A DNA stretch of 64,000 bases from an uncultured Alphaproteobacteria bacterium (GTDB lineage: Bacteria > Pseudomonadota > Alphaproteobacteria > CAAHEQ01 > UBA3637). Made by a program: the position numbers and the translations under genes. Shown in pieces: positions 4,164 to 49,548 of the stretch; the stretch's first letter is position 1, and each line of letters opens with the position of its first letter. The stretch lies in contig CAKQGY010000003.1 in NCBI GenBank assembly GCA_934234055.1, positions 21,142 to 85,141 of the forward strand. Reading direction: 5' to 3'. The notes beneath the pieces were generated by a model, which worked only from the letters and a program-made list of their open reading frames with translations, was not told where the DNA came from and did not search any database.

Positions 4164-4179
4164 TGTTTCACGTGAAACA
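4164..4179. promoter_or_regulatory. parS: parS centromere site (perfect TGTTTCACGTGAAACA)
   Basis: Exact 16-bp palindromic parS consensus, read directly in the sequence. Confidence 0.85.
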
Positions 4180-4227: not shown

Positions 4228-4243
4228 TGTTTCACGTGAAACA
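4228..4243. promoter_or_regulatory. parS: parS centromere site (perfect TGTTTCACGTGAAACA)
   Basis: Second exact copy, 64 bp from the first, upstream of rsmG-parAB. Confidence 0.85.
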
Positions 4244-5379: not shown

Positions 5380-5422
5380 AAGAGGAAGTATATCTAAAAT
5401 CTGCCCATTTTGCAAGCGAATT

Positions 5423-5687
5423 TGTGGATAATGTGGATAAATAGGTCTGTTTTTAAAAAGAGGTCTAAAACAATTAAATTGCACTCAGTCTAAATGCACA
5501 CCGGAAAAATCCCGAAAAATAGACCTGATTCAAAAAATGAACCCAGTTATCCACACGATTCGGGTAAATTTCAAAAACCTGTCAAGCAAAAAATAAAAAA
5601 GATATGCACATTATGCACACCCCCTTCTAATACTAATATATATTTATTATATAAGATAGGCAGGTTGAAAGTGGATAAAATCCACAG
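5423..5687. promoter_or_regulatory. AT-rich intergenic region with a cluster of DnaA boxes (candidate oriC or DnaA-regulated region)
   Basis: TGTGGATAA at 5423-5431 and 5432-5440. TTATCCACA at 5547-5555. AGTGGATAA/ATCCACA pair at 5670-5687. ATGCACA appears three times. Lies next to parS and parAB. Confidence 0.45.
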
Positions 5688-5759
5688 GTTTGTGAAATCT
5701 TGATTGCAAAGATGTAAATTATATGGTATCATAATCATTAAATGTAAAGGAGCATCGTC

Positions 5760-7157
5760 ATGTTGACTATTTATAATACGGAAAATCATCGCAAAGAAAT
5801 CTTTAAACCGATCCGCGAAGGGGAAGTTTCGTTCTATGCCTGCGGACCGACAATCTATAACTATGCCCACATCGGAAATATGCGGGCTTTTGTATTTTAT
5901 GACTTATTAAACAGATACTTACGCTATAAAGGATACAAAGTTAAATTCTGTATGAACCTGACGGATGTGGATGATAAAACCATTCGCGATTCACAGGCAC
6001 AGGGCAAAAAATTGCGCGAATTTACGGATTTTTATAAAGAAGCGTTCTTAAAAGATTGCGCAACGCTGAATATCTTGAAGCCGGACTTTAATCCGCGGGC
6101 AACCGAAGAAATACCCGCCATGATTGAGCTGATCCAAAAATTGTTAGAAAAGGGATACGCTTATCAGGCTAAAAACGGAGATATTTACTTTAAAATCAGT
6201 GCGTTCAGAAACTATGGACAAATGGCCGGAATTAATGCCGACGACTTGCGCGTGAATGCGGACGGGCGCTTGACGGAAGATGAATACGAAAAAGAAAATG
6301 CGCAGGATTTCGCGCTGTGGAAAGCCTGGACCGAAAAAGACGGCGAAAATTACTGGGATACGCCATGGGGAAAGGGGCGGCCGGGGTGGCATATTGAATG
6401 CTCGGCTATGGCACGGAAATACCTGGGGCAGCCGCTGGATATCCATGCGGGCGGAATTGATTTGGTCTTCCCCCACCATACCAACGAAATCGCGCAGTCG
6501 GAATGTGCTTACGGGTGTAAGTTTGTGAACTATTGGATGCATAACGAACACATCACCGTCAATGGCAAAAAAATGTCAAAATCGCTTGGAAATTGCTATA
6601 AAGTCAATGAGTTATTGGAAAAAGGCTATTCGCGTGAGGCGATCCGATACGAGTTTATTAAAGCCCACTATCGCCAAAATATGGACTTTCAAGAAAAAAG
6701 CCTGGCAGGGAATCAGTCGGTGATTGATAAATTCGGGAACTTTATAAACCGCCTGAGAACGGAAGTCAAGGGTGCCGGCTGGGAGAACTGCGGGACGGCG
6801 ATTGAACGCGCTCTGGCGGGCTTTGAAAAGGGCATGGACGATGATTTAAATACGCCACTGGCCTTGGTTGCCGTGTTTGACCTGATGACCGAGGTCAATA
6901 AACACTTTGATGCCCTGAGCCCTGAAAATGCACAGGCGATTTTGGCCGCGATGACGCGAATCAATTCGGTGCTAGCTGTGTTTCCGGAAGAAAAGCAACA
7001 AACTTTGACTGCCGCGCAGCAGGATCTGATTGAACGGCGGCAACAGGCGCGCTTGGCTAAAGATTGGGCGACGGCGGACGCTTTGAAAAAAGAGTTGATA
7101 AATCAAGGGGTTGAAGTGAAAGATACACCCAAAGGGCCGGTGTGGCGGTTGATCTAA
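5760..7157 (+). CDS. cysS: Cysteinyl-tRNA synthetase
   Basis: HIGN and KMSKS class I motifs. Full length. Confidence 0.95.
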   Translation: MLTIYNTENHRKEIFKPIREGEVSFYACGPTIYNYAHIGNMRAFVFYDLLNRYLRYKGYKVKFCMNLTDVDDKTIRDSQAQGKKLREFTDFYKEAFLKDCATLNILKPDFNPRATEEIPAMIELIQKLLEKGYAYQAKNGDIYFKISAFRNYGQMAGINADDLRVNADGRLTEDEYEKENAQDFALWKAWTEKDGENYWDTPWGKGRPGWHIECSAMARKYLGQPLDIHAGGIDLVFPHHTNEIAQSECAYGCKFVNYWMHNEHITVNGKKMSKSLGNCYKVNELLEKGYSREAIRYEFIKAHYRQNMDFQEKSLAGNQSVIDKFGNFINRLRTEVKGAGWENCGTAIERALAGFEKGMDDDLNTPLALVAVFDLMTEVNKHFDALSPENAQAILAAMTRINSVLAVFPEEKQQTLTAAQQDLIERRQQARLAKDWATADALKKELINQGVEVKDTPKGPVWRLI

Positions 7158-8041
7158 AATAAAGTTTCGGGATCTATGCGGACACCATACCAGCTGAGCA
7201 CAAAATGCAGGTGTGGACCGGTGGAACGGCCGGTCGTGCCAATTCGGCCGATTGGGTCTCCTTGTTTAACCTGTTGATCTAACTTAACATTTATGTGACT
7301 GAGGTGCGAATAGGATGAAAAAACACCGGCACCGTGATCCAGCAAAATCGTCTGGCCAGTGTAAAATAAATCAGGATGCACAAAGGCAACGCGGCCGGCC
7401 GCCGGTGCCAGCACAAGAGTGCCCGTGGGGGCGGCATAGTCAGTTCCGCTATGTCCTTGTTTTTTAACATTATTCAGAATGCGGCGCGACCCGAAATGAC
7501 TGGAAATACGCTTGAAATCCGGGACGGGACGTTGAAATTTTGTCGGAAAAGCAGGGTAGTCAGAACGGGCGCGGGCGGCACGAATCTGTGCGGATTCGGT
7601 GGCGACTCGTTTCCGGTTTTCGGACGACAGGGACACGGTGGCCGACGGCAGGCCGGAGACATACTCTTCGTCCCAGGCGCGCGATTGAACCGGAAAATCC
7701 CGGGTTTTGGCACCGGTTGAGGTCTTAATCGTCAAGGATAATTTTGGAGCGTCCTGAGGGATGCCGATGACAAAACGACGGTCCTTTGTCGAGGGGATTT
7801 GAAATAAATTTTTACTTGTTTTTCCGTTGTTTAAATAAGAACTTTCAACAAAGACTTCTTCCCCGGGATCCAAGCGACCATAGGCCAGAGAACCCTCGGT
7901 CAACGGGGAGTCAAATGTTAAAGCAATACTTGAAGTGGAAAAAAACAAGAAAGATGTAATTACAATGTAATTATTTAGTGATTTTGTAATTATTTTGTAA
8001 TTACATTTTAATGAAGTATATACATTGTAATTACTTTTCAT
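7154..8041 (-). CDS. M23 family (LytM-type) peptidase
   Basis: HSGTDYAAP...GPHLHF M23 motifs. The N-terminal 30 codons are made of an AT-rich repeat array, so the true start is uncertain. Confidence 0.75.
   Translation of the reverse strand: MKSNYNVYTSLKCNYKIITKSLNNYIVITSFLFFSTSSIALTFDSPLTEGSLAYGRLDPGEEVFVESSYLNNGKTSKNLFQIPSTKDRRFVIGIPQDAPKLSLTIKTSTGAKTRDFPVQSRAWDEEYVSGLPSATVSLSSENRKRVATESAQIRAARARSDYPAFPTKFQRPVPDFKRISSHFGSRRILNNVKKQGHSGTDYAAPTGTLVLAPAAGRVAFVHPDLFYTGQTILLDHGAGVFSSYSHLSHINVKLDQQVKQGDPIGRIGTTGRSTGPHLHFVLSWYGVRIDPETLF
7943..8022. repeat. Array of five copies of the palindromic motif TGTAATTA(CA) in a pure-AT island
   Basis: Copies at 7943, 7954, 7973, 7984 and 8014. TGTAATTACA is self-complementary. 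Lies at the xseA stop / M23 start junction. Confidence 0.6.
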
Positions 8042-9650
8042 TGAATAAATCTCCTTGAAAATAGGGGGCCGGAGTGGGGTTGGGGTGAGAAACGGGGGCT
8101 GATTGGGGGAATTCCCGGGGTTGCGCGGGGTCGGAAATGGTGGCGGGATCGGGTTTTACGGGGGTGTCAGGGGTCCGGTCGGTGGCTGCCGGGGTGGATT
8201 CCCTAGGTTGTGCGGGGGTGAAGATGACGCCCGGGGTGGATTTTCGGGCTGGTATGGGGGCTGGAATGGCATTGGATATGGGCTTTTTGAGGGGGTCAGG
8301 GGCCTGTGCGGGTGTGTCGGCGTTGGTGGCTTTTCCGGTGGGGACAGAGGTTTGGGGGCTAGCCGTTGGGGCGGGGGAGGATACCTGAAAAGTTGGGGAC
8401 TGAGTGAAGGATAAATCAGGGGATTCGTGTTGTGTGTGGGGAGTGGTGGGAATCGCCTCTATTTGGCCGTCGGCAAAAGATAAAATCAGGCTTTTTTGGG
8501 CGGCCGCAACGGTAGATTGGCTGATGACTTGATGTGAGGGCGATGAAATCAGGGCAAATCCACGCTCTAAAATGGAATGATATGATAATGATTTCAATAA
8601 CTTAGCGCTTGTTTCAAAACGCACGTTGATTGAACGCCAATAAACGGAAAAGGCTTGATCCAGGCGTTCGGAACGGTCGTCCAGACGTTGTAAAAAGTTG
8701 TTGATGACTTCACCCAGATTCGGCAGGTTGAGCGAATCCAGTTTAAGTTTCTTGTCCGAGAGGGTGCGATAAAGGCTTTCGGTCAGGCGGAGAGTTTGAG
8801 TCTGTAAATGTGTGAGCAGGTCGCTGCGAACCGGAACGGCTTTTTCGGCGGCACCCGTCGGTGTGGGAGTCCGCAAGTCCGAGACATAATCTATCAGGGT
8901 GGTGTCGGTTTCGTGTCCGACAGCGGAAATAATCGGAATATCAGAGTGATAGACGGCGCGGACGACGGTTTCTTCGTTAAAACACCAAAGGTCCTCTAAA
9001 CTGCCACCGCCACGGGCAACAATCAGGACATCTGGACGCGGAATCAAGCCGTCGGGAGTGGATAAACCCGCAGGAGGAATGGCGTTAAAACCTTGAATAG
9101 CTTGAACAACCTGATCAGCGGCGCCGTCGCCTTGAACCAAAACGGGCCAGAGAAATACCGGGCGCGGAAAGCGGTCGCGCAACCGGTGCATAATATCGCG
9201 AATGACGGCGCCGGTGGGACTGGTAATCACGCCGATGGTCGCCGGTAAAAAGGGAATTTTTTTCTTGTGCGCGGGGTCAAAGAGCCCCTCTTTGGCCAGC
9301 TTTTCACGACGCTCGTTTAAGAGCTTTAAAAGGGCACCGATGCCGGCGGGCTCGGCCGATTCTATAATCATTTGGTAGTTGGAACGGCCGGGGTAGGTGG
9401 AGAGTTTGCCGGTGCAGACGACTTCCAGGCCCTCTTGCAGGACGGATGCCGCAGAACGGCCGCGCCAACAGATCGCCGAGAGAACGGAATCTTTGTCTTT
9501 GAGAGAAAAATAAGTGTGCCCCGATGCCACGGTTTTCAGGCCCGAGACTTCCCCACGTACGCGGACATGCGCAAAGACTTGCTCGACGCAGGATTTGAGA
9601 GAAAGCGATAACTCGGAGACCGATAAAATGGGTTGTTCTTGTGTTTCCAT
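8031..9650 (-). CDS. xseA: Exodeoxyribonuclease VII large subunit with a Pro-rich C-terminal tail of about 180 aa
   Basis: OB-fold plus catalytic region resembles XseA. Likely start METQEQPILSVSEL at 9650. The last ~180 aa are a low-complexity P/T/A/S-rich extension. Confidence 0.85.
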   Translation of the reverse strand: METQEQPILSVSELSLSLKSCVEQVFAHVRVRGEVSGLKTVASGHTYFSLKDKDSVLSAICWRGRSAASVLQEGLEVVCTGKLSTYPGRSNYQMIIESAEPAGIGALLKLLNERREKLAKEGLFDPAHKKKIPFLPATIGVITSPTGAVIRDIMHRLRDRFPRPVFLWPVLVQGDGAADQVVQAIQGFNAIPPAGLSTPDGLIPRPDVLIVARGGGSLEDLWCFNEETVVRAVYHSDIPIISAVGHETDTTLIDYVSDLRTPTPTGAAEKAVPVRSDLLTHLQTQTLRLTESLYRTLSDKKLKLDSLNLPNLGEVINNFLQRLDDRSERLDQAFSVYWRSINVRFETSAKLLKSLSYHSILERGFALISSPSHQVISQSTVAAAQKSLILSFADGQIEAIPTTPHTQHESPDLSFTQSPTFQVSSPAPTASPQTSVPTGKATNADTPAQAPDPLKKPISNAIPAPIPARKSTPGVIFTPAQPRESTPAATDRTPDTPVKPDPATISDPAQPREFPQSAPVSHPNPTPAPYFQGDLFNEK

Positions 9651-9879
9651 GGGGGTATTATAGCAGAAATACGGGGAAAAGAAAAGGGAAAAATGGAGCC
9701 TTGATGAGAGAGTGGCATATTGATTTGTGTGTTCAATGGATTCTTCGGGGGCAGGGAAGACCGCCCCCATCAGAATGGCAAGTTGATTTAGGTGTTTCAT
9801 GGATTGCCGCGAGGCCGAAGGGCCGGCCACTCGCAATGGCGGGGGCGGGAGCAATAGTAGGAAAGAAAAATAAAAAAAG

Positions 9880-40526: not shown

Positions 40527-41446
40527 AGAAAGTAGCGGTTTTAATGGGCGGGTGTTCGTCTGAACGTGATATTTCACTGCAAAGCGGAGAGGGAGTGGCC
40601 GAGGCTTTGGTCGGGTTGGGATACAGCGTCAGCCGACTGGATTGGTCGGGCGACGGAGCCGAGTTGGTGGAAATGTTGACGGCCGAGCGGCCCGATGTGG
40701 TGTTTAATGCACTGCACGGTCGGTTTGGCGAAGACGGCTGTGTGCAGGGGCTTTTGAATATGATGCGGATACCCTATACGCACTCGGGCGTGGCGGCGTC
40801 GGCTATCGGTATGGATAAAGACCTGACCCGACAACTGGCTGAGAATGCCGACATTGATGTGGCGGCGGGGCGGTTGATGATGCGAGAAGACTTTTTGTCG
40901 GGCGGTGAACCGATTATGCCCTATGTAATTAAGCCAAATGCAGACGGATCGTCTGTGGGGGTGTTTATTGTGCGGGACGAGGCCGATCGGGAGCGGGCTT
41001 TGGCGGCCTGGCCCGCGGGTGAAGTTCGCCTGTTGGAAGACTATATCGCAGGACGAGAATTGTCGGTGGCGGTGCTGGACGGCTGTGCGATCGGTGTGGT
41101 GGAGATTATCCCGAAATCGGGTTATTATGACTTTACGAACAAATATCAGGAAGGTGGTGCGCGCCATGTGATACCGGCTGAAATCGGGTCTGAAATGACG
41201 GCTTTGGCCAAGGACTGGGCCGAGCAAATGCATACGATGATAGGCTGTCGCGGTGTGTCGCGGTGTGATTTCCGGCTGAACGATCGGACGAACCCCGAAA
41301 ATCCACGCTTGGTGCTGCTGGAAATCAACACAAATCCCGGTATGACGCGCCTGTCTCTGGTGCCGGAATTGGCCCGCATTTGTCGGCAGATGAGCTATGC
41401 CGAATTGGTGAGGCACTTGGTGGAGGAGGCAACATGCGACAACTGA
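40523..41446 (+). CDS. ddl: D-alanine-D-alanine ligase
   Basis: ATP-grasp. MKKVAVLMGG start. Confidence 0.9.
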   Translation: MKKVAVLMGGCSSERDISLQSGEGVAEALVGLGYSVSRLDWSGDGAELVEMLTAERPDVVFNALHGRFGEDGCVQGLLNMMRIPYTHSGVAASAIGMDKDLTRQLAENADIDVAAGRLMMREDFLSGGEPIMPYVIKPNADGSSVGVFIVRDEADRERALAAWPAGEVRLLEDYIAGRELSVAVLDGCAIGVVEIIPKSGYYDFTNKYQEGGARHVIPAEIGSEMTALAKDWAEQMHTMIGCRGVSRCDFRLNDRTNPENPRLVLLEINTNPGMTRLSLVPELARICRQMSYAELVRHLVEEATCDN

Positions 41447-43460: not shown

Positions 43461-44953
43461 CAAATAATGAACTGGATATCGGGCTGGCAACGCCGGCACC
43501 GGAGGTGCTGTTGACCCCGAACATCGGCGTGTTTGGCGTCGGGGGTGCTGGGGGCAACGCGATCAATAATATGATTCGGTCCAAGTTGGGTGGTGTGTCG
43601 TTCTTTGCCGCCAATACCGATGCCCAGGCTTTGTCGCGATCCTTGGTGGCGGACAAGATTCAGCTGGGTGTGGCATTGACCAAAGGATTGGGGGCGGGGG
43701 CTAATCCCGAAATCGGCAAGGCCGCCGCCGAAGAATCGGCTGACAAGATTAAAGAAGCCCTGACGGGGTTGCACTTGCTGTTTTTAACGGCGGGTATGGG
43801 GGGCGGCACCGGCACGGGGGCGGCGCCTGTGGTGGCACGCCTTGCAAAGGAAATGAATATCCTGACCGTCGGGGTGGTGTCCAAACCGTTTAATTTTGAG
43901 GGGTCGCGCCGGATGAAAACGGCCGAGCAGGGGATTATTGAACTGCAAAAATATGTGGATACGCTGGTTGTGATACCGAACCAAAATCTGTATCGGATTG
44001 CGGGTGAGGGTATGACCTTTTTAGAGGGCTTCAAAATCGCGGATAATGTGTTGTGCCAAGGCGTGCGCAGTATTACGGATTTAATCTTGAAGCCCGGAAT
44101 TATCAATTTGGACTTTGCCGATGTGCGCACGGTGCTGTCCACAATGGGACGCTCTATGATGGGCACCGGTGAGGCCAATGGTGAAAACCGTGCGTTGGCG
44201 GCTGCCGAGCAGGCCATTACCAATCCGCTGTTGGATAACACCAGTATCAAGGGGGCCAAGAGCCTGCTTTTGAACATTTCCAGCGGTTCGGATATGACGA
44301 TGAATGAGTTTGATATTGCCGCTGAGCGCATTCGGGCCGAAGTGGATCCGGACGCGAACATTATTGTCGGCGCCAGTGTTGATGAAGATTTAAGCGGCAA
44401 AATCCGGGTGTCTTTGGTGGCGACGGGAATTGACGATATGGTCAACAATATCCCCGAGGCTGTGAACAAGCCCGTCGTGCCTGAGCCCGCTCCTGTCAAT
44501 GTGACCCCGCCCGAGATCGCACCGATTGTCACACCGACTCCTGCGCCCGAACCGGCGGCGGCCGAGCCTGACCTGATGCCGATTCAGCCCACGGTTGCGC
44601 AAACACCCGAACTGATTTTAACCGAGACGGTAGAGCCTCTTGCGGCCACTTTGGTGGTGGATTTACCGACGCCGCCACCCGCGCCCGAACCGGCCCTGTT
44701 TACCGAGCAGCAGCCGATTATGGCCGACATTACGCCGATTACCGATATGCCCGAGGAACGCGCCGAAATCAAAGTGGATACGCCGCAAAATACCGCGAAT
44801 GTCAAGCCGCAAAACAGTGGGCTGTTTGGTCGCTTTTGGGGCAAGAAACGGCCGGTGGTGCGCCCCGCGCAACCCAAAGAAGATGAGCCTTTGTTGGATG
44901 TGTTCGGCAATGATATGTCGCTTCCTTCCTTTTTTAAGGAACCGCGCAAGTAA
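43445..44953 (+). CDS. ftsZ: Cell division GTPase FtsZ with a long Pro-rich C-terminal linker
   Basis: GGGTGTG tubulin signature. C-terminal conserved peptide [14 protein letters not shown]. Confidence 0.9.
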
Positions 44954-46207
44954 ATGACGAAACCGCAAACTTCCCGTGCGTGTGCCGTGCGCCTGTTGAC
45001 GCAGGTGTTGAATCACGGCCGGACAATAGAGCGCGCCGAAACGGCTGATCCCGGGACGCAAAAGTTGTCTGAATCGGATCGTCAATTTGTGCATTTAATC
45101 TTGCTGACAACGGTGCGTCGGTTGGGACAGATTGACGCGGTTTTGGGGCGGTTGTTGCGCAAGCCGTTGCGGGGTAAACTGGCTCCGGTGAATCAGATTT
45201 TGCGGATCAGTGTGGCGCAATACCTGTTTTTGAAAACGCCGGCCTATGCGGTGGTCAATACGGCGGTGGAACTGACGCGCGCGCTGGGCTTTGCAGGTAT
45301 GACGCGCCTGGTCAACGGGGTGTTGCGCACCTTGGAACGACAGGCAGATTCCCTGGCGGGGACAGAGGTTATTCAAAATATCCCGCTCTGGTTGCGACAG
45401 GTGTGGGAGGCTTATTACGGGCCGGATATGGTGCGTCAAACGGCCGAGGCGGTGCTGATCCCGCCGCCATTGGATATTACGGTGGCCGAAAACGCTGCGG
45501 ATCTGGCCCGGCGGTGGCAGGGAGTTGTATTACCAACCGGCGGGGTGCGGGTAGCGGCGGCCTCCCCCACCGAATTAGAGGGCTTTCAAACGGGTAAATG
45601 CTGGGTGCAAAACGGTGCTGCGTCGGTGCCGGCACAGCTGCTGGGTGATGTGGCGGGCTTGCGGGTAGCGGATTTATGCGCTGCCCCCGGAGGTAAGACG
45701 GCGCAACTGGCCGCCCGCGGTGCGCATGTGGCGGCCTATGACATCTCGGACAAGCGGCTGGAAAGACTGCGTGAAAATATGCGGCGCCTGGGCCTGGAAA
45801 ATCAAGTCTCGGTGCATTGTGGGGATATTTTGACCCTGACGGATCGGGACATTTATGATGCCGTGCTGCTGGACGCACCGTGTTCGGCGACCGGCACGAT
45901 TACCCGCCACCCCGAGGTGATGTATCACCAAACGCCCGCCGATGTGGCGCGCTTGGCCGAATTACAACGGCAAATGCTGCGTCAGGCGATTGCCCTGACA
46001 AAACCGGGGGGTAAAATTGTGTTTTCCACTTGCTCACTGCAACCCGAAGAGGGCGATGCCGTCGTGCAGGCGATGGGTGATCAAATCACGGTTATGCGTC
46101 CGACGGACGATCGCTGGAAACCGTTTTTAACGCCTTTCAGCAGCCTGCGATTCCTGCCGGCCATGGGGTATGACGGCTTTTACGCCTGCCTGATGCGCAG
46201 GCACTAG
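44954..46207 (+). CDS. rsmB: 16S rRNA m5C methyltransferase (RsmB/Sun family)
   Basis: NusB-like N-terminus, SAM motif DLCAAPGGKT, catalytic Cys in STCS. Confidence 0.8.
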   Translation: MTKPQTSRACAVRLLTQVLNHGRTIERAETADPGTQKLSESDRQFVHLILLTTVRRLGQIDAVLGRLLRKPLRGKLAPVNQILRISVAQYLFLKTPAYAVVNTAVELTRALGFAGMTRLVNGVLRTLERQADSLAGTEVIQNIPLWLRQVWEAYYGPDMVRQTAEAVLIPPPLDITVAENAADLARRWQGVVLPTGGVRVAAASPTELEGFQTGKCWVQNGAASVPAQLLGDVAGLRVADLCAAPGGKTAQLAARGAHVAAYDISDKRLERLRENMRRLGLENQVSVHCGDILTLTDRDIYDAVLLDAPCSATGTITRHPEVMYHQTPADVARLAELQRQMLRQAIALTKPGGKIVFSTCSLQPEEGDAVVQAMGDQITVMRPTDDRWKPFLTPFSSLRFLPAMGYDGFYACLMRRH

Positions 46208-46668
46208 GGCGCGGTGGGGGTGGCCTGTGCCTGTAAATGGCGTGTGATATATTGTAAAAACTCAACAAATGTTTGAAAAACAAACAAAGATTGATAGGTA
46301 AAGCGATCTAGTAAGCGGTATTCTTTGGTCGCAAAGTCATAGGTGATCAGTGTCTCCCACCCATAACCCAACAATAATTTTTTCTTCATCACGGCGTTGT
46401 TCTGGCAAAAAGCATAGTGCTGCAAAATGCCGGGGTGCGTAAAGGCGCCTTTGTTGCGTTCAATGTTGTTCAGGGCAAACAGGGTTATCCCGTTCCAAAA
46501 CAGGCCGTTCGTTGCCCCCAAAAACGACACATAATCCAGCGGAATGGGGGGCACCCCCGCTTTGACCAGCGTGACCGAGGCTTGCTGAACGGTTTTGGGA
46601 TCCACGGGCGGGAAAACCACCGCATAGTGCTCGTATAAGCATTTCAGGCATTTATTGAGTTCTGACAT
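46204..46668 (-). CDS. SUKH (Smi1/Knr4)-like putative immunity protein
   Basis: PIPLDYVSFLGATNGLFWNG matches the SUKH-1 LPxDYxxFLxxxNGG core. Last gene of the T4CP operon. Confidence 0.4.
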   Translation of the reverse strand: MSELNKCLKCLYEHYAVVFPPVDPKTVQQASVTLVKAGVPPIPLDYVSFLGATNGLFWNGITLFALNNIERNKGAFTHPGILQHYAFCQNNAVMKKKLLLGYGWETLITYDFATKEYRLLDRFTYQSLFVFQTFVEFLQYITRHLQAQATPTAP

Positions 46669-46671
46669 TTT

Positions 46672-47352
46672 TTACCTCCCCGGCATACTGCGCAGCGCCA
46701 AATCGCGCAAAGCATTTTCCGAAAAACCGGCCACAACACTGCGGTCTTGCTTGTTCTTACCACCCGATCCCGTCAGCAGCCCCAACGGAATATACACTTT
46801 ACCCGTCGGGACGGGGACATACAATTGCGCCGGGGTCAGAGCGCCCTCGGGGCCCAAAATCTGTTTGTTCAGATACAGATGTATCAGCTCGTGAAACGGG
46901 CGAGCCTGAATAAACACCAGGTTTTCAAAATCAACCTTACCGCCGTAATCCAGCGGATACTTCAAATGCACGGTAAAGTTCTCGGGGATTTGGCCGTGCT
47001 TCATATAGAACAGACCCTCTTCCGTAACGCCGGCCGCGCGCAGGTCATTCGCGTGGTGATAGGATAAAAAGCGCGTAAAATCGCGAATCGTGCGGTTCAG
47101 GAACTTTTGCCGGGCGACAAAATCGGCGGCTTCGTCCGGATAATAGGGCACAACCATCAGGTCCATACCCGGAAAGTTCATCTCGTTAAACAGGGACTCC
47201 CAATGGGATTGATCTTGTTCGGCCAACTCCAAACCGTCCATAAAGTGGTCGTCCATCACCGGGGCTTGCAGCAACCTGTCCCAATCGGCAAAAATATCCG
47301 TTGCGTTCAACGACGCGGACAGAGACATTTGTTGGGTGTCATTTTCAGCCAT
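46672..47352 (-). CDS. Hypothetical protein with an HExxH motif (candidate metallopeptidase-type toxin or effector)
   Basis: ARPFHELIHLY. No other recognisable family. Lies between the T4CP and the SUKH-like gene with 3- and 12-bp gaps. Confidence 0.35.
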   Translation of the reverse strand: MAENDTQQMSLSASLNATDIFADWDRLLQAPVMDDHFMDGLELAEQDQSHWESLFNEMNFPGMDLMVVPYYPDEAADFVARQKFLNRTIRDFTRFLSYHHANDLRAAGVTEEGLFYMKHGQIPENFTVHLKYPLDYGGKVDFENLVFIQARPFHELIHLYLNKQILGPEGALTPAQLYVPVPTGKVYIPLGLLTGSGGKNKQDRSVVAGFSENALRDLALRSMPGR

Positions 47353-47364
47353 GGAATCCTCCTA

Positions 47365-49548
47365 TCAGGTTTTGTTTTCTTCGTCCAACTCCACAATATC
47401 GCCTTGCACCATTGCTTTCAGGGCGGACATATCCGCTTCTTCACGCTGGGCCACAATCCAATACGGCACAAACGGCGCGGTTTTAAGAGCACACTTTTTG
47501 CGCATCTTCTTGTCCAAATACCACCGGGGCGCATCGGCCAAAATCGGGCGGTTTAAAAAGCCCTGGAACAAGACATATTGCTTTAACATATCCAAGCTCA
47601 TCATATCCGAGGCACCCACCACACTGGAACTTTGCAGCGACCGCGACACATTCGCCGCGAACGGGTTGGTCTGCATAGAGACCCCCTCGGTGCGCGAAGA
47701 ACTGGCCACTTCAATCGTGCGCGACCCGATCATCTTGGAGAATCGCTCGGCGGTTTGTTCGTTGTTCTGAGCCAGAATGACTTTGGCAGCCGTTGTCGTA
47801 ATAATCGTTTCCAAGTCGTCCTTACCATACTGCCCCGAGATCTGCCCCAAATCCTGTCCGATCAGCAGGTAAGACACCTTTTGTCCCCGCCCGACAGCCG
47901 GCCCGTCCTTGACCGCCGCCAGTTTCGGCATTTGCGGGAATTCATCCAGCACGAATAACACCGGGTAGGGGCCGACTTTGACCCCGTCGGCGGCAATATC
48001 ATTCGGCTTGTTGGAAATCAGGTAAGAACTCATCAATTCCACAAACACGCCGGTAATCACATTCAAGGTTTTGGCATCCACCTGATTGACCGACAGGTAA
48101 ACGGTGATCGGCTTCATTTCGCCTGTCACGGGATCCACCATACCGCGCAAGTCCTTAAATGTAATATCGCTGAACTTGGTGCGGGCGCGCACGGCCGAGT
48201 TTTTGAAAATGTTGATTCCGGTAAAGGCAGTGGATAAAATAGATCCCCGCTCTTTATCGGGCGTGCCGGCCAACTGACTCAGTTCAACCACCGCCCGGCG
48301 GGAATAGCCGAAACGCTCGGCCTCGGCAATCGCGATTTTCAAGGCATCACCCTGCGCATCGGCAAATGCGGCGGCCTGATCGCCCTCGTCCTGCCGGCGT
48401 TTGAGGTCGGCATTGACACGCATTTGTATGTCGGTCCACCAGTCAAAAATCATCGCGATGCAGGGTTCGTTGCCTTGCCAACTTTCGGGCAGACTTTCCC
48501 AAGTTCCCACCGGCGCATAATTTTCGGTCGTCAGCGTCCCGCCCTTTAAGGCCTCCAACGCAATCCGTGCGCTGGGGTCCGTCATATCCATATAATAGGT
48601 TTCCAGCACCTCGGCATCGTCCTTGTCAAACGATCCTTCACTCAGCTTTGCCAGAAAATAGTCGTTTGCCCGGGCGCGCTCACACTTGCTGCAAATAAAG
48701 TGTAAAAAGCCCGACATGGCGTTTCGGCCGGTTTTGGACCAGTGCGGATCTGCGCCGCCTTTTGGCTCCTCTACCAATACAGCAACCATTGAGTCAATAT
48801 ACATATCCCGCGACGGACCCAGTGGCGGCAAACAACTGGCCGACAGAGGGTTCCAGCTGGGGTAGTAGGTTCCCTTGGCCGGGTCATCTTCCGCCCCCCA
48901 GTTGATTACGAACACGGGCCCCTGCGTCGCCCGATAGCCCGAGGTATTATAGCACAATTCCGGCTTGGGGTCGTTGACAATCAGGCTCAGCCCCGGTGAC
49001 TCTAAAATCGTCGGAATCACGACGCCCGCGGTTTTACCGGTTCCCGGAGGCGCCACCACCAACGCCGATAAAGTTTCCGGCATTTTCAACAGCTTGCCCT
49101 TAAACCGCCCCAGCACAATCACAAACCCGTCAAACAGCTTCATTTTTTTGACATCTTCATAGGTTGCCTTGCGCCCGCCGCCAAACACATTCGGCGTGTA
49201 TTTATAGGGGTTTGTGACAATCCGATAGATAAAGAAAGTGAACGCAATCACAAACGATAAATAGGGCAAATACAACACGGGTGATCCCGACCGATCCATA
49301 CGGGCCAACTGCCGATAACTTTGGAACTTGTCCCACAGAACCGTCGGCTTCCAGCCTCGAATCCAGAAATGCCACGCTTTGGACAGCTCGTCAATGCTTA
49401 AACCGTTAAAGAACCACTGCGTCATCGGTATGAACAGCAGCAGCAACAGCCACGCAATCACCAGCGTAAAAAAGATGCTCCATAAAATGCGGGCAACAAA
49501 TTTTACCTGTTCGTCATAAGCCTCATCTCGTTTGAATGCCATAATCAA
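47365..49548 (-). CDS. virD4: Type IV secretion coupling protein (VirD4/TraG family ATPase)
   Basis: Two N-terminal TM helices. Walker A VVAPPGTGKTAGVVIPT (compare VirD4 LVVAPTRSGKGVGVVIP). Walker B LFVLDEFPQMPKL. Confidence 0.8.
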   Translation of the reverse strand: MIMAFKRDEAYDEQVKFVARILWSIFFTLVIAWLLLLLFIPMTQWFFNGLSIDELSKAWHFWIRGWKPTVLWDKFQSYRQLARMDRSGSPVLYLPYLSFVIAFTFFIYRIVTNPYKYTPNVFGGGRKATYEDVKKMKLFDGFVIVLGRFKGKLLKMPETLSALVVAPPGTGKTAGVVIPTILESPGLSLIVNDPKPELCYNTSGYRATQGPVFVINWGAEDDPAKGTYYPSWNPLSASCLPPLGPSRDMYIDSMVAVLVEEPKGGADPHWSKTGRNAMSGFLHFICSKCERARANDYFLAKLSEGSFDKDDAEVLETYYMDMTDPSARIALEALKGGTLTTENYAPVGTWESLPESWQGNEPCIAMIFDWWTDIQMRVNADLKRRQDEGDQAAAFADAQGDALKIAIAEAERFGYSRRAVVELSQLAGTPDKERGSILSTAFTGINIFKNSAVRARTKFSDITFKDLRGMVDPVTGEMKPITVYLSVNQVDAKTLNVITGVFVELMSSYLISNKPNDIAADGVKVGPYPVLFVLDEFPQMPKLAAVKDGPAVGRGQKVSYLLIGQDLGQISGQYGKDDLETIITTTAAKVILAQNNEQTAERFSKMIGSRTIEVASSSRTEGVSMQTNPFAANVSRSLQSSSVVGASDMMSLDMLKQYVLFQGFLNRPILADAPRWYLDKKMRKKCALKTAPFVPYWIVAQREEADMSALKAMVQGDIVELDEENKT

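Follow-up and report, generated by a model that had tools for sequence, protein, structure and literature searches.

Repeat array at the xseA/M23 junction

The window, which is the whole stretch of 64,000 nucleotides of uncultured alphaproteobacterial DNA that was analysed, contains an AT-rich island where xseA ends and an M23 peptidase gene begins, and this locus raises the question of whether the palindromic motifs crowded into it are low-complexity or coding sequence, or a DNA signal in their own right. The motif TGTAATTA was found on the plus strand at 7955, 7966, 7985, 7996 and 8026, with consecutive copies 11, 19, 11 and 30 bp apart, and these five copies within 7955–8033 bear out the five palindromic copies that the initial annotation had reported at the junction. 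The full palindrome TGTAATTACA makes up two of them (7955 and 7996), the copy at 8026 reads TGTAATTACT and the remaining two read TGTAATTATT, and the sole further TGTAATTA copy within the 64 kb lies at 40924. Shuffles of the whole window give an expectation of 1.3 copies, and 8 strand-hits were reached in 0 of 100 such shuffles. The motif is likewise in excess over the AT-rich composition of the island itself, since dinucleotide-preserving shuffles of 7933–8064 reached at least two TGTAATTA copies in only 6 of 20,000 cases. The island had been described as almost 100% A+T within a GC-rich genome, and both descriptions need correcting: the interval 7943–8041 is 83% A+T (17% GC), the window as a whole has a GC content of 51%, and the only GC-rich part there is the adjoining xseA tail (63–67%).

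That the array is low-complexity AT-rich DNA arisen by chance, or the decaying remnant of an insertion or mobile element, would accord with the many AT-rich intergenic islands of the window; the local shuffles argue against it, as does a position conserved across many species-level lineages. The small-insertion remnant proposed earlier fails on the same ground, as the array keeps its position where the M23 proteins are only 50–62% identical. REP/BIME and MITE repeats are scattered through intergenic regions in tens to hundreds of copies, unlike the one array per 64 kb and two contexts across the clade seen here, and dispersed repeats of this kind were rejected. The chance or insertion-remnant reading is already refuted, and its probability is close to nil. 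An IHF/H-NS-type nucleation site is unlikely, as what is conserved is a specific 10-mer and not mere AT-richness.

The genes and signals of the junction are as follows.

7154..8041, minus strand: M23 peptidoglycan metallopeptidase gene (Pfam PF01551, E=3.7e-30)
8031..9854, minus strand: xseA ORF, encoding the large subunit of exonuclease VII, whose C-terminus forms a proline-rich tail
8039..8041, minus strand: M23 start codon ATG, opening an M-K-x-N-Y/H start conserved in orthologues
8051..8056, minus strand: M23 Shine-Dalgarno sequence AAGGAG, within the last xseA codons (..QGDLFNEK, then the stop), with a 9-nt spacer to the ATG
8031..8033, minus strand: TAA stop codon of xseA, located inside the first motif copy (AAG TAA TTACA)
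7922..8041, minus strand: predicted cleavable signal peptide of 40 aa, from inspection and the AxA/LTF motif of the orthologues

The closest NCBIfam resemblance of the M23 product is to a Pgp3-like model, under the cutoff of that model, and the xseA start is probably the internal METQEQ. The two genes overlap by 11 nt because the xseA stop lies within the first motif copy. Consistent with the initial annotation, the island encodes the N-terminus of the M23 protein, namely residues 1–30 of the ORF. By inspection, the predicted signal peptide comprises a 22-aa Lys/Asn/Tyr-rich n-region built of repeat units, an h-region YIVITSFLFFSTS and a c-region SIA with cleavage before LTF, and this succession of K-rich units, YIVITSFLFFSTS and SIA/LTF may represent a Sec-type (SPase I) signal.

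The convergent cysS (plus strand) and M23 (minus strand) genes overlap by 4 nt at their 3' ends (7154–7157), so no intergenic terminator region lies between them. Next to the array, the proline-rich xseA tail carries an indel of ~96 bp (window 8069–8209 versus 7739–7785 in the strain L192) that separates two strains otherwise 98% identical, and more distant relatives, with xseA of 425–446 aa, lack this tail or have a much shorter one.

Doublet organization of the array

The five copies belong to three doublets, each a 21-bp palindrome TGTAWWTACA-W-TGTAATTACA consisting of two 10-mers 11 bp apart, and the doublets of the window score 16–18 out of 20 against TGTAATTACA-N-TGTAATTACA. Written out from the ATG at 8041 with 30 nt to a row, the minus strand shows three units in register, each following the pattern 'xxx xxx xGT AAT TAC AWW GTA ATT ACA xxx'.

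7955..8035, no strand: complete repeat array, made up of three doublets of 21 bp spaced on a lattice of 30 bp
8015..8035, minus strand: doublet 1 (unit 1), reading AGTAATTACA-A-TGTATATACT and encoding S-N-Y-N-V-Y-T
7985..8005, minus strand: doublet 2 (unit 2), reading TGTAATTACA-A-AATAATTACA and encoding C-N-Y-K-I-I-T
7955..7975, minus strand: doublet 3 (unit 3), reading AATAATTACA-T-TGTAATTACA and encoding N-N-Y-I-V-I-T

The two copies of a doublet sit in different frames, one giving N-Y and the other V-I-T, hence the peptide 'NYKVIT', and the third frame of the motif holds the TAA that serves as the xseA stop codon (8033–8031) in the first copy of doublet 1. The degenerate central W positions encode Lys or Asn in the n-region units and Ile in the h-region unit, where the peptide of doublet 3 starts the hydrophobic core. 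Elsewhere, an isolated doublet-like site at 1723 lies inside a conserved coding motif of miaA and was judged a chance occurrence.

Conservation among relatives

The array constitutes a genuine DNA signal and is conserved throughout a clade of uncultured Alphaproteobacteria from gut and rumen. A protein search revealed ~48 metagenomic M23 orthologues of 50–62% identity with the same array at the junction of xseA stop and M23 start, whose N-termini consist of 1–7 'xKxNYKVITx' units followed by YYIVITF(S)LPAYA/LTF, that is, a hydrophobic core and an AxA motif. The repeat-encoded peptide varies in length from 10 to 70 aa among these orthologues, and the periodic array spans 90–210 bp of coding sequence. 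More distant M23 orthologues possess a plain lipoprotein signal peptide and are devoid of repeats; one of them is located after atpC and not after xseA. Contigs of seven relatives keep the synteny xseA > M23 > < cysS, rnt, gidB, parA, parB, < miaA, lptE-like, holA, and the 11-nt xseA/M23 overlap, the Shine-Dalgarno sequence and the start codon are kept in the same seven contigs. Moreover, CAAGGAGA is kept upstream of the M23 start in L001 and L003–L006.

No alternative start codon was found ahead of the hydrophobic core of the signal peptide. The array is therefore translated, since the orthologues keep the Shine-Dalgarno sequence, ATG and AxA cleavage site and no later start is available. The proposal that the true peptidase start may lie downstream of the island is not supported, given the ATG at 8041, the AAGGAG and the 11-nt overlap kept in relatives, the absent alternative start and the strict 30-bp (10-codon) lattice of the coding arrays described below.

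The sequence examined amounts to ~170 kb from the clade together with a lattice-specific scan that detects arrays and to which isolated single operators are invisible, and the loci were reached via genes of this neighbourhood, except in two pattern scans. A metagenome scan unbiased by location gave 19 clade matches, 15 at M23 and 4 after holA, with no third array context in the clade. Among the matches listed in a loose scan of contigs for triple TGTAATTA, most were unrelated tandem repeats (periods of 14 bp and 12 bp, other phyla) and L077 and L087 were the useful loci. A protein-database search with a synthetic NYKVIT-repeat peptide gave no match. Similar words in other phyla belong to different tandem repeats; a viral scan gave one match, at the edge of a contig resembling a eukaryotic virus, and a marine cluster with four copies of GTGTAATTACAC (L157, L159) is eukaryotic-looking, both being irrelevant here. 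GC-rich (58–60%) MAG contigs labelled Clostridiales or Clostridia were observed to carry long GATGTAATTAxxxx arrays with a strict 14-bp period and up to 13 copies (L079 1849–2082, L119 2939–3144, L024 2453–2588), which represent another repeat architecture built on the shared TGTAATTA word in unrelated contigs.

Constraint on DNA rather than on the peptide

Differential codon usage was observed between the array and the rest of the M23 gene. Tyr is encoded by TAC in 16 of 16 cases in the array versus 8 of 33 in the rest (p=2e-7), Val by GTA in 18 of 18 versus 13 of 82 (p=7e-12), and Thr by ACA in 22 of 23 versus 31 of 112 (p=7e-10). The Tyr codon is TAC at position 5 of the unit and TAT at position 8, where it is part of the palindromic variant GTATATAC. 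The information content at third codon positions within the motif is 1.4–2.0 bits, equal to that at the first and second positions. In addition, the strain L192, 98.4% identical to the window, differs by four substitutions in the array region, all of which lie in spacers and each of which changes an amino acid, and the motif copies are untouched.

A purely coding repeat would be an extended signal-peptide region under amino-acid selection, in which the likeness of the DNA reflects recent duplication or concerted evolution. The peptide repeat is indeed common to all close orthologues, the frame is always open, and copy number varies as in tandem-repeat proteins; however, the synonymous codons are fixed against the codon usage of M23 itself, Tyr codons differ between unit positions 5 and 8, strain substitutions alter spacer amino acids and spare the motif, the same motif also builds non-coding arrays, and more distant orthologues do without the repeat and use a lipoprotein signal peptide. 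The reading is largely refuted and we regard it as very improbable; a protein tandem repeat selected at the amino-acid level was likewise rejected, as the synonymous drift expected of it is replaced by fixed codons. The initial annotation had reasoned that an N-terminal peptide shared by orthologous peptidases would mean that the island is simply coding. The peptide is shared, literally as envisaged, but the conclusion fails, because the fixed synonymous codons, the conserved third positions, the spacer-only strain differences and the non-coding twin array show that selection acts on the DNA and not on the peptide, which is a by-product of the DNA motif.

A second, non-coding array and helical phasing

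The same doublets were found directly after the holA stop codon in L001, L003, L004 and L005, with the stop again inside the first copy (AAG TAA TTACA), and this stop-codon-in-motif geometry was observed at the holA stop and at the miaA stop of relatives. The post-holA arrays with coordinates are as follows.

L192, 16413–16495: post-holA array, corresponding to about window coordinate -560
L001, 14638–14750: post-holA array
L003, 18569–18651: post-holA array
L004, 16428–16528: post-holA array
L005, 19283–19364: post-holA array

The window's own lineage, as judged from L192, thus has its second array after holA, ~560 bp past the left end of the window. Further post-holA arrays were recovered through the pattern scans (L087, L137, L150, L176 and L188), and the array follows miaA in L077 and in L191, in the latter between convergent miaA and parB. 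The genes 3' of the post-holA array differ among L001, L003, L004 and L005 (rubrerythrin, a convergent ORF, a coiled-coil membrane protein of 508 aa and a tRNA). The second array is situated between convergent genes in L003 and L191 and abuts the -35 element of a downstream promoter at other loci, and with such different settings a single regulatory logic is not obvious. Several relatives carry, after the second array, a gene whose product is a membrane-anchored coiled-coil protein of ~510 aa (L004 16608–18642; L077 5243–7294) with weak similarity to ATG17-like, MamY_C and MCE proteins. This gene appears to form an operon with the genes of a MazE/VapB-like antitoxin and of a PemK/MazF-like toxin.

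The spacing of doublets differs between the two kinds of array. After removal of duplicate arrays, 48 of 48 doublet steps in coding arrays measure 30 bp, with none of 29 or 31–33 bp, whereas the non-coding arrays have 3 steps of 30 bp and 14 of 31–33 bp (Fisher p=1e-11). The strict 30 bp against the relaxed non-coding spacing means that the coding arrays are constrained by the reading frame and therefore translated. The element prefers ~31 bp (three helical turns), and translation compresses this period to ten codons. The phasing is independent evidence that the M23 array is translated and that its function depends on the geometry of double-stranded DNA.

Possible action at the RNA level

As RNA, the repeats might fold in the xseA-M23 mRNA and hide the M23 Shine-Dalgarno sequence and AUG, as a translational coupling device or an AU-rich thermosensor, and after holA they might act as 3' stem-loops stabilising the transcript. 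The 141-nt M23 5' region is predicted to fold at -27.7 kcal/mol (z=-5.6) with both the Shine-Dalgarno sequence and the AUG paired, and the arrays start exactly at the xseA, holA and miaA stops, which places them in a 3' UTR or intercistronic location. Palindromic repeats, however, give a low folding energy automatically. The deviations of doublets from symmetry are one-sided in 130 cases and compensated in 6 in non-coding doublets, and one-sided in 227 and compensated in 3 in coding doublets; because they are almost never compensated, it is the sequence and not the pairing that is conserved, which argues against an RNA hairpin. The primary sequence is moreover kept across lineages at 50–60% amino-acid identity, and an RNA function offers no reason for phasing at 31 bp versus 30 bp. 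An RNA element, whether at the M23 start or after holA, is accordingly considered improbable.

An Rfam search returned no family match, with only a sub-threshold miRNA match. Within 7600–8500 no promoter-like site was found, and no terminator-like site lies inside the island. An intrinsic (Rho-independent) terminator was rejected, since the island has no GC-rich stem with a U tract and its stems would consist of A-U pairs only.

Position of the arrays relative to the replication origin

The window has three perfect DnaA boxes TTATCCACA, all of them at 5423–5555 (5423 and 5432 on the minus strand, 5547 on the plus strand), accompanied by near-perfect boxes with 1 mismatch at 5611 and 5670. The cluster coincides with the minimum of the cumulative GC skew, the skew there changing from about -0.2 to +0.2, and the cysS-rnt intergenic region with its DnaA-box-like sites is conserved in relatives. 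The origin oriC is probably located at ~5420–5700, in the rnt/cysS intergenic region. The arrays flank it, the M23 array at about +2.3 kb and the holA array at about -6 kb (placed from the 98%-identical strain L192). Two perfect canonical parS sites (TGTTTCACGTGAAACA) occur at 4164–4179 and 4228–4243, at the 5' end of the gidB-parA-parB cluster and a short distance upstream of it; the array is not a ParB-parS centromere, as the 16-bp parS palindrome is unrelated to the array motif. The GC skew changes a second time at ~46 kb (44000–48000), falling from about +0.2 to a value near 0 or negative at the point where the dcw/fts cluster ends and the genes change orientation.

With the arrays within 2–6 kb of oriC, they could indicate a role at the level of the chromosome. 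The arrays would then be centromere-like or origin-organising sites of a second, non-ParB DNA-binding system, acting in segregation, anchoring, condensin loading or initiation control, and their overlap with M23 would be incidental, as it is for parS sites in genes. The probable oriC does lie between the arrays, at ~2.3 kb from one and ~6 kb from the other; the second array stays in the gidB-parAB-miaA-holA cluster though its immediate neighbours change, and it occurs also in promoter-less intergenic regions between convergent genes; the metagenome scan disclosed no third context; and 3–7 phased repeats are typical of plasmid centromeres such as parC/ParR and omega-protein heptads. Nevertheless, canonical parS and parAB are already there, the arrays are in direct orientation and not mirror-symmetric about oriC, neither adjoins a cognate adaptor or motor gene, and the loci were sampled through the genes of this neighbourhood, bar the two pattern scans, one of which counts only the matches listed. 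An origin-flanking element with such roles is rather unlikely in our judgement, yet it is the main rival to a roadblock or insulator, because the arrays lie on both sides of oriC, are retained even between convergent genes and did not turn up at any other location.

Comparison with known systems

The feature is akin to phased operator or centromere-like arrays and to sites overprinted on ORFs, and its dual-code signature is unusual. In a literature search for the motif, only the relO operator was relevant as a precedent. The relO operator of Escherichia coli consists of TTGTAATGACAT and TTGTAATTACAA, two adjacent 10–12-bp palindromes made from [A/T]TGT[A/C]A hexads and bound cooperatively by adjacent RelB ribbon-helix-helix (RHH) dimers, and it is a single 24-bp operator with 12-bp half-site spacing that overlaps the relBE promoter (PMC2812701). 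The array doublet TGTAATTACA-A/T-TGTAATTACA compares with the identical core TTGTAATTACAA and the near-copy TTGTAATGACAT of relO, and adjacent TTGTAATTACAA-like palindromes of inverted [A/T]TGT[A/C]A hexads are present in the doublet consensus. It differs in that its copies stand 11 bp apart in all arrays, against the 12-bp register of relO, the one spacing that operator tolerates, and in that the doublets are iterated 3–7 times every 30–31 bp, with one array translated. The gene tables of the window and the relatives contain no relBE pair flanking either array; a MazE/MazF-like pair lies downstream of the gene p513 in L004 and L077 only.

Helix-phased short repeats bound by RHH adaptors are known from parC/ParR of plasmid R1, parC of pSK41 and the omega-protein heptads; these plasmid centromere arrays adjoin their own par operon, assemble many dimers into a higher-order complex and serve in cis for positioning, not solely as operators of the classical kind. 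The present arrays, with 3–7 doublets at 30–31 bp, are likewise helically phased and comprise short repeats iterated as in such centromeres, for which at least four would be expected, but they are chromosomal, flank oriC and coexist with canonical ParAB-parS. No cognate adaptor or NTPase gene adjoins them, the only par genes being the type Ia parAB 2–6 kb away. Lrp/AsnC-type operators and paired NrdR boxes are AT-rich palindromic sites ~31–32 bp centre to centre (~30–32 bp in Lrp/AsnC-type arrays), a phasing that permits proteins to bind cooperatively or to wrap the DNA on one face. The sites described here similarly come at intervals of some three helical turns, with 31–33 bp in 14 of the 17 near-unit spacings of non-coding arrays; the consensus sequences differ, however, and the target genes are not the usual ones.

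Cis sites within coding sequence are known as well, such as parS inside spo0J/parB genes and roadblock operators in ORFs. A putative DNA-binding site is overprinted on a translated region here too, but the known cases are single sites of 14–16 bp and the present one is a periodic array of 90–210 bp whose period is forced from 31 to 30. The extended signal peptide region (ESPR) of autotransporters is a long N-terminal extension before a normal signal peptide, conserved at the amino-acid level; the M23 protein also has an unusually long N-terminal extension ahead of its signal peptide, but unlike the ESPR this extension arises as a side effect of a DNA motif, with a length of anything between 10 and 70 aa. 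Several further sites were rejected for sequence mismatch with their consensus, namely CtrA (TTAA-N7-TTAA), DnaA boxes, the 7-1-7 boxes of Fur/Zur/PerR, HexR (TGTAAT-N3-ATTACA), TyrR, NrdR boxes and the direct repeats of OmpR/PhoB.

Proposed function

The suggestion that the island is an operator array for a dimeric regulator is supported in kind: the fixed synonymous codons, the non-coding twin, the helical phasing and the lack of pair covariation point to an operator-like element acting at the DNA level, with a putative binder. Pfam and NCBIfam searches of the neighbours revealed no RHH or HTH candidate next to either array, and the adjacent genes were rejected as regulators, the 146-aa product being secreted and the 167-aa product an LptE-like lipoprotein.

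Each doublet may dock a symmetric dimer-of-dimers protein, ribbon-helix-helix-like or HTH, and doublets phased on one face of the helix would allow cooperative binding or DNA wrapping and hence a large nucleoprotein complex. This complex would sit right after the xseA stop, on the M23 ribosome-binding region, and as a roadblock or insulator it could gate transcriptional read-through and M23 expression from the xseA operon; the sister array may play an equivalent part where the holA or miaA transcription unit ends. Since the n-region of the signal peptide is lost after export, the motif is tolerated there. Against the gating role stand the result that 7600–8500 yielded no promoter or terminator signal to frame it and the varied settings of the second array. 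The roadblock or insulator role is favoured because the arrays begin at stop codons and one of them covers the M23 translation-initiation region, and we put at about an even chance that this cis-acting, also-translated array is a cooperative platform for a putative symmetric DNA-binding protein that gates M23 in this manner. Less probably, the arrays belong to an origin-flanking cis system not described before, in which a putative protein assembles on three-turn-phased 21-bp palindromes on either side of oriC and organises, anchors or regulates the DNA around it; if so, a position beside the origin would be needed enough to overprint the array on a signal-peptide region and to bend its period from 31 to 30 bp.

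Implications

The array represents one DNA stretch under two codes, in which 31-bp helical phasing is bent to the 30-bp triplet code and the choice of codons is dictated by the DNA motif and not by the peptide. For annotation it is a caution that an odd N-terminal peptide common to orthologues need not itself be under selection. For a clade known only from metagenomes, it supplies a conserved and testable cis element that implies a putative DNA-binding protein and adjoins both the replication origin and a cell-wall hydrolase gene.
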